From sequence record MT185428: a stretch of DNA of 4,526 nt; one strand, given 5' to 3'. The DNA comes from Escherichia phage EC6098. A model generated the notes under the pieces. That model was given only the letters and a program-made list of their open reading frames with translations. It ran no database searches and had not been told where the DNA came from. This document shows positions 2 through 4,526 of the stretch, piece after piece (position 1 is the stretch's first letter; each line of letters begins with the position of its first letter). Both the position numbers and the translations under genes were made by a program.

Positions 2-29
2 GTTAAACTAAATATACATTATGCGCACT
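2..29 (-). other. dif-like XerC/XerD recombination motif (candidate attachment site), reverse orientation relative to canonical E. coli dif
   Basis: Plus strand 2-29 is GTTAAACTAAATATACATTATGCGCACT. The reverse complement of E. coli dif (GGTGCGCATAA-TGTATA-TTATGTTAAAT, recalled from memory) is ATTTAACATAATATACATTATGCGCACC. By hand alignment: XerC arm 10/11, central hexamer 6/6, XerD arm 7/11, total 23/28. Confidence 0.5.
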
Positions 30-3535: not shown

Positions 3536-3558
3536 GGCCTCTGCGGAGGCCTTTTTTT
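3536..3558 (+). terminator. Rho-independent terminator between the capsid and pilot genes
   Basis: GGCCTC-(TGCG)-GAGGCC forms a perfect 6-bp GC-rich stem (3536-3541 / 3546-3551) with a 4-nt loop, followed by seven T residues (3552-3558). Begins 18 nt after the capsid stop codon (3516-3518). Confidence 0.8.
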
Positions 3559-3572
3559 CATGAGGTGAAATT

Positions 3573-4352
3573 ATGGGCTTTTTATCATCTGCCGTTGGTG
3601 CTGTTGGTTCCATTGCCGGTTCTCTTCTCGGTGCCCACTCTGCCCAGCAGAACGCCGCACAGGCGAACAAGTTAACGATGGATTTGGCCAAAAACGGTAT
3701 GCAGTACCGCGTACAGGATTTGCGAAAAGCTGGTCTTAACCCGATTCTGGCCGTTACTGGTTCCGGTGGTCTTGGTTCCGTCAGTTCGTCAGGTATTCAG
3801 GCCGCCCAGCCTGCCGATTTCTCAGGAGTGGTTAATTCTGCGGTTAGCGTATTTGACGCCTTAACGCGCCGTCAGCAGCAGGAAGTTGCCCGTGAAGGCA
3901 TCATGTCTCAGATTGCGTTACAACGTAACCAGATTGCGAATAGCGCGGCTGATGTGAAGCTTAAAGAGGCTCAGGCTGCCCAGGCTATCCAGAGTGCCGA
4001 TAACATGCGATCGCAGTCGAATCTGATTAATCAGCAGGTTTTGACCGAGGCTTCCCGCCGTGCCAATATTGAATCTCAGACAGGCCTTAATTCTGCACAG
4101 CGGATTAGAACACAGTATCAAACTATGCAGGATAAGGTTATTCATGACTATTTACAGACTGATGCCGGTAAGGCTTCTACGGTAGGTTCTTATGATGCAA
4201 AATCTGGCGGGCTTCCAGCTCTTGGTAATTATATTTTTGGTGCTGGCGCTCGTTTCTTTGGTGATAAAAGTTCTGCGAAAGCGGTAAGCAAGGGGGGACG
4301 CCTCCCCCCTAACCAGTTCCAGCAGCAATTGATTAACAACTATAGGAGGTAA
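3573..4352 (+). CDS. VP2: DNA pilot / minor capsid protein (VP2-like, functional analogue of phiX174 H)
   Basis: 259-aa ORF with Shine-Dalgarno GAGGTG (3562-3567) 5 nt upstream. Gly/Ala/Ser-rich hydrophobic N-terminus (MGFLSSAVGAVGSIAGSLLGA) followed by a long Gln/Ala-rich, probably coiled-coil segment. Sits directly after the capsid gene, as in gokushoviruses. Confidence 0.75.
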   Translation: MGFLSSAVGAVGSIAGSLLGAHSAQQNAAQANKLTMDLAKNGMQYRVQDLRKAGLNPILAVTGSGGLGSVSSSGIQAAQPADFSGVVNSAVSVFDALTRRQQQEVAREGIMSQIALQRNQIANSAADVKLKEAQAAQAIQSADNMRSQSNLINQQVLTEASRRANIESQTGLNSAQRIRTQYQTMQDKVIHDYLQTDAGKASTVGSYDAKSGGLPALGNYIFGAGARFFGDKSSAKAVSKGGRLPPNQFQQQLINNYRR

Positions 4353-4354
4353 TT

Positions 4355-4474
4355 ATGGCTCGTTCTCGCCGTCGTATGTCTAAGCGTTCTTCCCGTCGTT
4401 CGTTCCGTAAGTACGCAAAGACGCATAAACGTAACTTTAAAGCCCGCTCCATGCGTGGCGGCATTCGTCTTTGA
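4355..4474 (+). CDS. Small arginine-rich DNA-binding/packaging protein (phiX174 J-like; gokushovirus small basic ORF)
   Basis: Hand translation gives MARSRRRMSKRSSRRSFRKYAKTHKRNFKARSMRGGIRL (39 aa, roughly 45 percent Arg/Lys), ending at TGA 4472-4474. Consensus AGGAGG at 4344-4349 lies 5 nt upstream of ATG 4355. The start is 2 nt past the VP2 stop codon. Not in the supplied ORF track, presumably because of a length cutoff. Confidence 0.75.
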   Translation: MARSRRRMSKRSSRRSFRKYAKTHKRNFKARSMRGGIRL

Positions 4475-4504
4475 TTGACAAAGTTGATCGTAACGATCTA
4501 TGAT
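4475..4504 (+). promoter_or_regulatory. Candidate sigma70 promoter reading rightward across the window end (toward Rep if the genome is circular)
   Basis: Perfect -35 TTGACA at 4475-4480, an 18-bp spacer, then -10 TATGAT at 4499-4504 (5/6 to TATAAT). Predicted transcription start near 4511. Located immediately after the small basic ORF stop codon. Confidence 0.5.
4486..4498. repeat. Short palindrome GATCG-TAA-CGATC containing two GATC (Dam) sites, within the promoter spacer
   Basis: Positions 4486-4490 (GATCG) are the reverse complement of 4494-4498 (CGATC). Lies between the -35 and -10 elements of the candidate promoter. Confidence 0.6.
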
Positions 4505-4526
4505 AATTATCGTAAGTCGTTGTTTT

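Follow-up and report, generated by a model that had tools for sequence, protein, structure and literature searches.

The 39-amino-acid open reading frame at 4355..4474 (plus strand, stop codon included) of the 4,526-nucleotide stretch of DNA analysed here, which we refer to as the window, is almost certainly the VP8 gene of an enterogokushovirus, with a proposed role in tethering the viral genome to the capsid. It is a real gene, conserved and under purifying selection, and it belongs to the Chp2 ORF8/VP8 family. It is also a gene that was already known: VP8 figures among the six genes named for this virus, and it is modelled in the virus's solved virion. Since VP8 had been named before and had been seen in a capsid structure, the biology gains little from its recovery here, and the practical point of the analysis concerns annotation.

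The reading frame and its start site

The translation of the frame, MARSRRRMSKRSSRRSFRKYAKTHKRNFKARSMRGGIRL, contains 12 arginines and 5 lysines and neither aspartate nor glutamate, which gives a net charge of +17. Its net charge of 0.44 per residue makes it the most basic ORF of the window by a wide margin; the runner-up has 0.24. The protein encoded at 4355..4474 is thus Arg/Lys-rich; it is internal to the virion and presumed to bind single-stranded DNA. For the purposes of this analysis we divide it into two parts. Codons 1-30 (4355..4444) form a basic N-terminal part, which holds 15 of the 17 lysine and arginine residues and is the presumed ssDNA-binding arm. Codons 31-39 (4445..4471) encode RSMRGGIRL, a C-terminal motif to which family conservation, together with the published structure, assigns the role of capsid anchor.

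The sequence around the junction of VP2 and VP8 reads ctatAGGAGGtaattATGgct. The last two arginine codons of VP2 form a perfect Shine-Dalgarno sequence, AGGAGG (4344..4349, plus strand), which lies 5 nt from the VP8 ATG; the stop codon of VP2, TAA (4350..4352, plus strand), is separated from that ATG at 4355 by only 2 nt (tt, 4353-4354), so that stop and start form a tight junction. The initial annotation had described the same arrangement, with AGGAGG 5 nt before the ATG and the ATG 2 nt past the VP2 stop, and all of its coordinates are right. The window contains two AGGAGG motifs, and only the one at VP8 precedes a gene; no other Shine-Dalgarno sequence in the genome is as good. The codon usage of the frame is similarly one-sided, in that all 12 of its arginines are encoded by CGT or CGC. 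Both are arginine codons favoured by E. coli genes with high expression.

A perfect 8-bp stem, AGGGGGGA-cgcc-TCCCCCCT, is found at 4291-4310, within the 3' end of VP2 and 45 nt before the start of VP8. The C-run of this stem is also found in Microvirus mar4, one of the relatives considered below.

Identity, family and relation to protein J

The peptide is identical at 39 of 39 positions to chain E of PDB entry 8DES, where it is called 'Putative DNA binding protein', and the VP1 of the window is identical at 566 of 566 positions to chain A of the same entry. 8DES is the cryo-EM structure of the gokushovirus phiEC6098 (Lee et al. 2022, as cited in the SpV4 structure paper, PMC11281519), and VP1 is the hypervariable gene of the E. 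coli gokushoviruses (PMC7062461). The window is therefore either phiEC6098 or a genome that shares its VP1 and VP8 exactly. The initial annotation had suggested looking for the peptide in purified virions by mass spectrometry; its presence in virions is established, by cryo-EM (8DES) rather than by that method.

The gene likewise has a place in the literature. Kirchberger and Ochman 2020 named the last of six genes 'VP8 (putative DNA-binding protein)' (PMC7062461), and VP8 is among the annotated genes of the EC6098 reference genome, NC_048874.1 (PMC9239249). Under this published name it is described as a J-protein analogue located in the capsid interior (PMC7062461, PMC11281519). Thus, when the initial annotation spoke of an unannotated arginine-rich ORF of 39 aa, it was correct about the ORF, which is real, and mistaken in calling it unannotated, as the literature names VP8 for this very virus.

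Beyond this one virus, VP8 is a member of a wider family. It matches phrog_10695 end to end, with residues 3-39 aligned to positions 2-39 of the 39 in the profile (E 1.6e-10), and it has the features of that family: a length of 39 aa, strong basicity, no acidic residues and a terminal MRGGIRL. The same profile also captures Chp2 ORF8 (E 5.8e-19), along with a microvirus protein whose annotation reads 'DNA binding protein' (E 1.4e-13). Compared directly by BLASTP, VP8 and Chp2 ORF8 align with E 1e-4, with 10 of 17 identities over the C-terminus. Neither Pfam nor NCBIfam holds a model for VP8.

To delimit the family we searched 1.84 billion proteins with a profile of eight close homologues, at a threshold of E <= 0.001, and obtained 326 cluster representatives. 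Among the best 150 of these 326, most are 36-40 aa long, 88 have MRGGIRL at their end, and the profile match either reaches the C-terminus or stops one to two residues short of it. In an alignment of 152 sequences, conservation across the family is highest at positions 33-39 (MRGGIRL): R34, G35 and G36 do not vary at all, and I37, R38 and L39 hardly vary. Conservation in the same alignment is at least 90% at R5, S13, F17, N27 and R38. Because invariant positions include non-basic residues, we conclude that this is a true protein family and not an artefact of composition. In a tblastn search of a phage collection, all 58 matches (58/58) fall in Microviridae-type records. The initial annotation had suggested a search by profile against the small basic proteins of Microviridae.

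Depending upon how the resemblance to protein J of phiX174 is read, VP8 could be placed in a different family altogether. That is, VP8 could be a true member of the J family (Pfam Microvir_J) which has diverged beyond easy recognition. The two proteins are similar in size (39 versus 38 aa) and both are extremely basic, with no acidic residue in either; both end in the pattern GG-x-x-hydrophobic (RGGIRL in VP8, VGGQQF in J); the last four C-terminal residues superpose in all solved microviruses (PMC11281519); and a review terms VP8 a 'J-protein homolog'. However, comparisons by BLASTP, Pfam, PHROGs, hhalign and PDB profile searches are all negative, and the N-termini of VP8 and J follow different paths inside the capsid (PMC11281519). 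VP8 has no Pfam match at E <= 1, and hence none to PF04726 (Microvir_J), and the PHROGs search gives no match of VP8 to phrog_2354 ('DNA condensation'); the positive control, phiX174 J itself, matches PF04726 with E 1.7e-16 and phrog_2354 with E 2e-28. BLASTP of VP8 against J yields no alignment at E <= 100, a VP8 profile of 100 sequences reaches a probability of 0.4% against J in hhalign, and the profile searches of the PDB with VP8 retrieve 8DES chain E as their sole hit, with no J chain at E <= 10. We consider membership in the J family unlikely; given the shared GG-x-x-hydrophobic ending, a very old common origin keeps a minor share of the probability. We regard J as an analogue of VP8, in function and partly in structure, and not as a detectable sequence relative.

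The initial annotation had likened the peptide to J and to the small basic ORFs of gokushoviruses at once. The second likeness stands, given that VP8 shares phrog_10695 with Chp2 ORF8 and is identical to 8DES chain E. The first stands for function and for the structure of the C-terminus, and does not extend to a detectable sequence family.

It is also conceivable that VP8 is non-structural, acting only in replication or packaging and forming no stable component of the virion. Chp2 ORF8 is indeed annotated 'nonstructural protein', and two E. coli members of the cluster bear the same name; this label appears to have been inherited from older annotation. But the virion model 8DES includes VP8 as one of its chains, and the C-terminus of VP8 is reported to be ordered in the phiEC6098 capsid (PMC11281519). 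We judge a purely non-structural role to be very improbable.

Conservation in relatives, genomic setting and annotation

In order to assess the gene at the level of nucleotides, we compared it with its counterparts in eight relatives (n=8), namely Microvirus mar4 (MZ089750.1) and seven E. coli prophages. The VP8 ORF is intact in 8/8. Each relative differs from the window at 4-19 nucleotides of VP8 but at only 0-2 amino acids; third codon positions account for 20 of the 25 variable columns, and dN/dS ranges from 0 to 0.10. The other two forward frames over the same bases show the reverse pattern, with dN far above dS. The start region is preserved as well: the arrangement GGAGG-TAA-(1-2 nt)-ATG, with a gap of 4-5 nt, is kept in all eight relatives even where the C-terminus of the upstream protein differs, and the GGAGG is formed in these relatives by the final two codons of the upstream gene. 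VP8 is encoded identically by six of the seven RefSeq E. coli prophages. Conservation of the ORF and of its Shine-Dalgarno sequence had been put forward in the initial annotation as a check on the gene, and both are conserved throughout the eight.

These patterns bear directly on the reading that the ORF is a chance open frame between VP2 and VP4 which yields no protein, its basicity being a by-product of CGT-rich DNA. Several simple statistics are compatible with chance. The length of 39 codons is not above chance expectation and is unremarkable among the 45 ORFs of at least 30 aa in the window; the number of AGGAGG motifs in the window is by itself not significant, with 2 observed versus 1.22 expected and thus no excess; and gene callers skip the ORF in 7/7 RefSeq prophages. 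A chance frame, however, would not be expected to appear as an identical peptide modelled in the virion structure 8DES, to show a dN/dS of 0-0.10 in eight relatives with changes concentrated at third positions, or to belong to a family of 326 representatives with invariant non-basic positions, and we assign this reading next to no probability. The alternative that the true gene is the antisense ORF at 4333..4464 (minus strand, 43 aa), or else the stop-free +2 frame on the same bases, is improbable in the extreme: both frames are open in the window, and the antisense translation varies less among the relatives than do other wrong frames, but 6/8 relatives have an Ile codon in place of the antisense ATG and the antisense stop shifts in position, microvirus genes all run in one direction (PMC9239249), and the +2 frame lacks a start codon and shows 14-15 amino-acid changes versus mar4 and E. 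coli C5 (the most divergent relatives), with dN far above dS.

The spacer between VP2 and VP8 has been described as a variable region (PMC7062461). In mar4 (MZ089750.1), an extra hydrophobic ORF of 32 aa, MFSRLLTPVLLALDSLYVAVDAIVKIVRSFGG, occupies 2533-2631 between VP2 and VP8; its end likewise forms a GGAGG-TAA-ATG junction, and it has no counterpart in the window.

The setting of VP8 in the window is that of an E. coli gokushovirus. The genes follow the order VP4-VP5-VP3-VP1-VP2-VP8, all on the plus strand, as microvirus genes all point one way (PMC9239249). VP4 is the replication initiator (phrog_942, E 1e-113); VP5 has a weak ORF5-type match; VP3 matches the Chlamydia-phage scaffold (PF09675, E 5e-34); VP1 is the F-type capsid protein (PF02305, E 4e-185); and VP2, the DNA pilot protein (3573..4352; phrog_8693, E 8.2e-20), lies directly upstream of VP8, in the published order. 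The position of VP8 directly upstream of VP4, on the same strand, is found likewise in Chifec UA13_19 and in Chp2. The six-gene order together with a phage dif site has been described for E. coli gokushovirus prophages by Kirchberger and Ochman 2020 (PMC7062461), and the window shows what is expected of an enterogokushovirus on each count: the six-gene arrangement, a phage dif motif, and prophage relatives integrated beside the bacterial dif.

The dif-like site, AGTGCGCATAATGTATATTTAGTTTAAC, occupies 2-29 (minus strand). Its spacer is the same as that of E. coli dif, from which it departs at 5 positions; the XerD arm accounts for 4 of these. Seven complete E. coli chromosomes contain prophages with 86-94% identity to the window, in every case beside hipA and flanked by dif sites. 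These prophages carry a near-canonical dif on their VP4 side, and 6/7 also carry a divergent dif downstream of VP8. This arrangement fits XerCD-mediated integration as published for enterogokushoviruses (PMC7062461).

Several further elements flank the genes. A palindrome, TATGCGCAC-CTTA-GTGCGCATA, at 20-42 overlaps the XerC arm of the phage dif and yields a second, inverted sequence resembling the XerC arm, GGTGCGCATAT, at 32-42; the same palindrome was also scored as a terminator-like hairpin on the minus strand. The longest VP4 ORF begins inside the dif site, at the ATG at 21, where there is no Shine-Dalgarno sequence. The RefSeq annotation of the prophages places the start of VP4 at the equivalent of window position 63, preceded by GGAGG at 52-56. 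Because of that annotated start and that GGAGG, as opposed to the bare ATG at 21, the real start of VP4 is probably at 63.

The best sigma-70-like site in the genome, TTGACA-18 nt-TATGAT (11 of 12 positions), lies at 4475-4504; it starts one base past the VP8 stop and is directed towards VP4. Over the -35 hexamer and the adjoining spacer of this site, four prophages are identical and the others differ. Overlapping its -10 element, in the intergenic region between VP8 and VP4, there is an 18-nt imperfect palindrome, AACGATCTATGATAATTA / TAATTATCGTAAGTCGTT, at 4492-4521, which could be an operator or an origin-related hairpin. Finally, a terminator-like hairpin, GGCCTCTGCGGAGGCC, followed by T7, lies at 3536-3558 between VP1 and VP2. 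If this hairpin is functional, then VP2 and VP8 would be expressed through read-through or from another promoter.

A gene that is named in the literature can nonetheless be absent from sequence records, and this is the case for VP8 across its relatives. PGAP annotates five phage genes in all seven (7/7) RefSeq E. coli prophages, and VP8 is not among them. In 38 of the 58 Microviridae records with a tblastn match there is no feature under VP8, and just 2 bear the label 'DNA binding protein'. A collection of 15 billion proteins does not contain the exact VP8 sequence, and near-identical E. coli entries are named 'hypothetical' or 'nonstructural protein'. The ORF lister used for the window has a default minimum of 60 aa, under which a 39-aa ORF falls. 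These 7/7 prophages and 38/58 matches without annotation bear out the remark in the initial annotation that ORF callers with a length threshold easily miss it. A short family profile, or the terminal MRGGIRL motif alone, would recover VP8, and its recovery matters to completeness checks and to gene-content comparisons of microvirus genomes.

Proposed role and comparison with known systems

The role of VP8 has been considered mainly by reference to phiX174. VP8 is described as an Arg/Lys-rich analogue of phiX174 J with an important part in DNA packaging, and capsids of phiX174, alpha3, G4, phiEC6098 and SpV4 have all been seen to contain VP8 or J (PMC11281519). In the description of phiEC6098 given in that study, only the C-terminal 10 aa of VP8 are ordered, and the remainder leads into the capsid interior; the N-terminal part is disordered in the virion map, which is interpreted there as DNA-bound. 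A buried pocket of VP1 receives the C-terminus, in the same area of the capsid where the C-terminus of J lies buried (PMC11281519). J itself enters the procapsid with the ssDNA, displaces the internal scaffold and tethers the DNA to the coat. Because no sequence relationship between the two proteins is detectable, the transfer of this mechanism from J to VP8 is by analogy.

With that understanding, the following scheme can be proposed. A strong ribosome-binding site within the last codons of VP2 would drive the translation of VP8, of which roughly one copy per coat subunit would be required. By analogy with phiX174 J, VP8 would then accompany the single-stranded genome into the procapsid; the basic first two thirds of the protein would neutralise and hold the ssDNA, and its MRGGIRL tail would plug into a pocket on the inner face of VP1, so that the genome is tethered to the capsid. 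We infer the copy number of VP8, its high expression and any translational coupling to VP2, and the N-terminal arm presumably binds ssDNA, in keeping with the 'putative' of the PDB name. A demand of about one copy per coat subunit would account for both the perfect Shine-Dalgarno sequence and the choice of codons. VP2, by analogy with phiX174 H, would be needed in far fewer copies, and so independent initiation at VP8 likely dominates over re-initiation. SpV4 VP8 is present in empty capsids too (PMC11281519), and because of this the packaging route may differ from that of phiX174.

The pattern of conservation adds a further consideration. R5, S13, F17 and N27, which are near-invariant in the family, all lie within the part of VP8 that PMC11281519, in its account of phiEC6098, reports as disordered in the virion. 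Near-invariance in a disordered part suggests a specific contact, beyond the neutralisation of charge. Candidate partners are the inner surface of VP1, the VP3 scaffold that VP8 displaces, or the VP4 packaging complex; in SpV4, residues 14-20 of VP8 contact the inner surface of VP1 (PMC11281519). We therefore offer, tentatively and as a possibility that we would rate below even, the view that VP8 is more than a non-specific polycation: it may make a specific, possibly transient contact during packaging, and the GGAGG-TAA-(1-2 nt)-ATG junction may set the ratio of VP8 to VP2 through re-initiation combined with strong independent initiation.

Among the known systems, the J proteins of phiX174, G4 and alpha3 resemble VP8 in size, in charge and in the placement of the C-terminus in the same buried area of the capsid. 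Unlike VP8, whose gene follows the pilot gene, phiX174 J is encoded between D/E and F.

The VP8 of SpV4 (structure 9CGM) is likewise small, basic and located in the capsid interior, and it ends in RGG-x-R-[FL]. Its seven C-terminal residues can be superposed on those of phiEC6098 VP8 (PMC11281519). The sequences agree less well: an hhalign comparison is in register over the last 18 aa and is weak, with a probability of 7.4% that is not significant, and SpV4 VP8 has no match to phrog_10695. The extent of order differs too, since residues 9-38 of SpV4 VP8 are ordered and line the capsid, compared to about 10 ordered residues in phiEC6098 VP8, as that study describes the latter (PMC11281519).

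Chp2 ORF8 shares with the VP8 of the window its membership in phrog_10695, the pattern H-x-[KR]-N ... MRGGIR[LF]-COOH, and a location directly upstream of VP4/ORF4. It differs in being longer and richer in arginine (44 aa, 18 R); identity between the two is only about 59% over the C-terminal 17 aa. Because the gene order of Chp2 differs, ORF8 comes there after VP3 and not after VP2.

The closest known system, finally, is phiEC6098 itself, from which no difference is detectable at the protein level: the amino-acid sequence of VP8, VP1, the gene order and the phage dif site are all the same as in the window.
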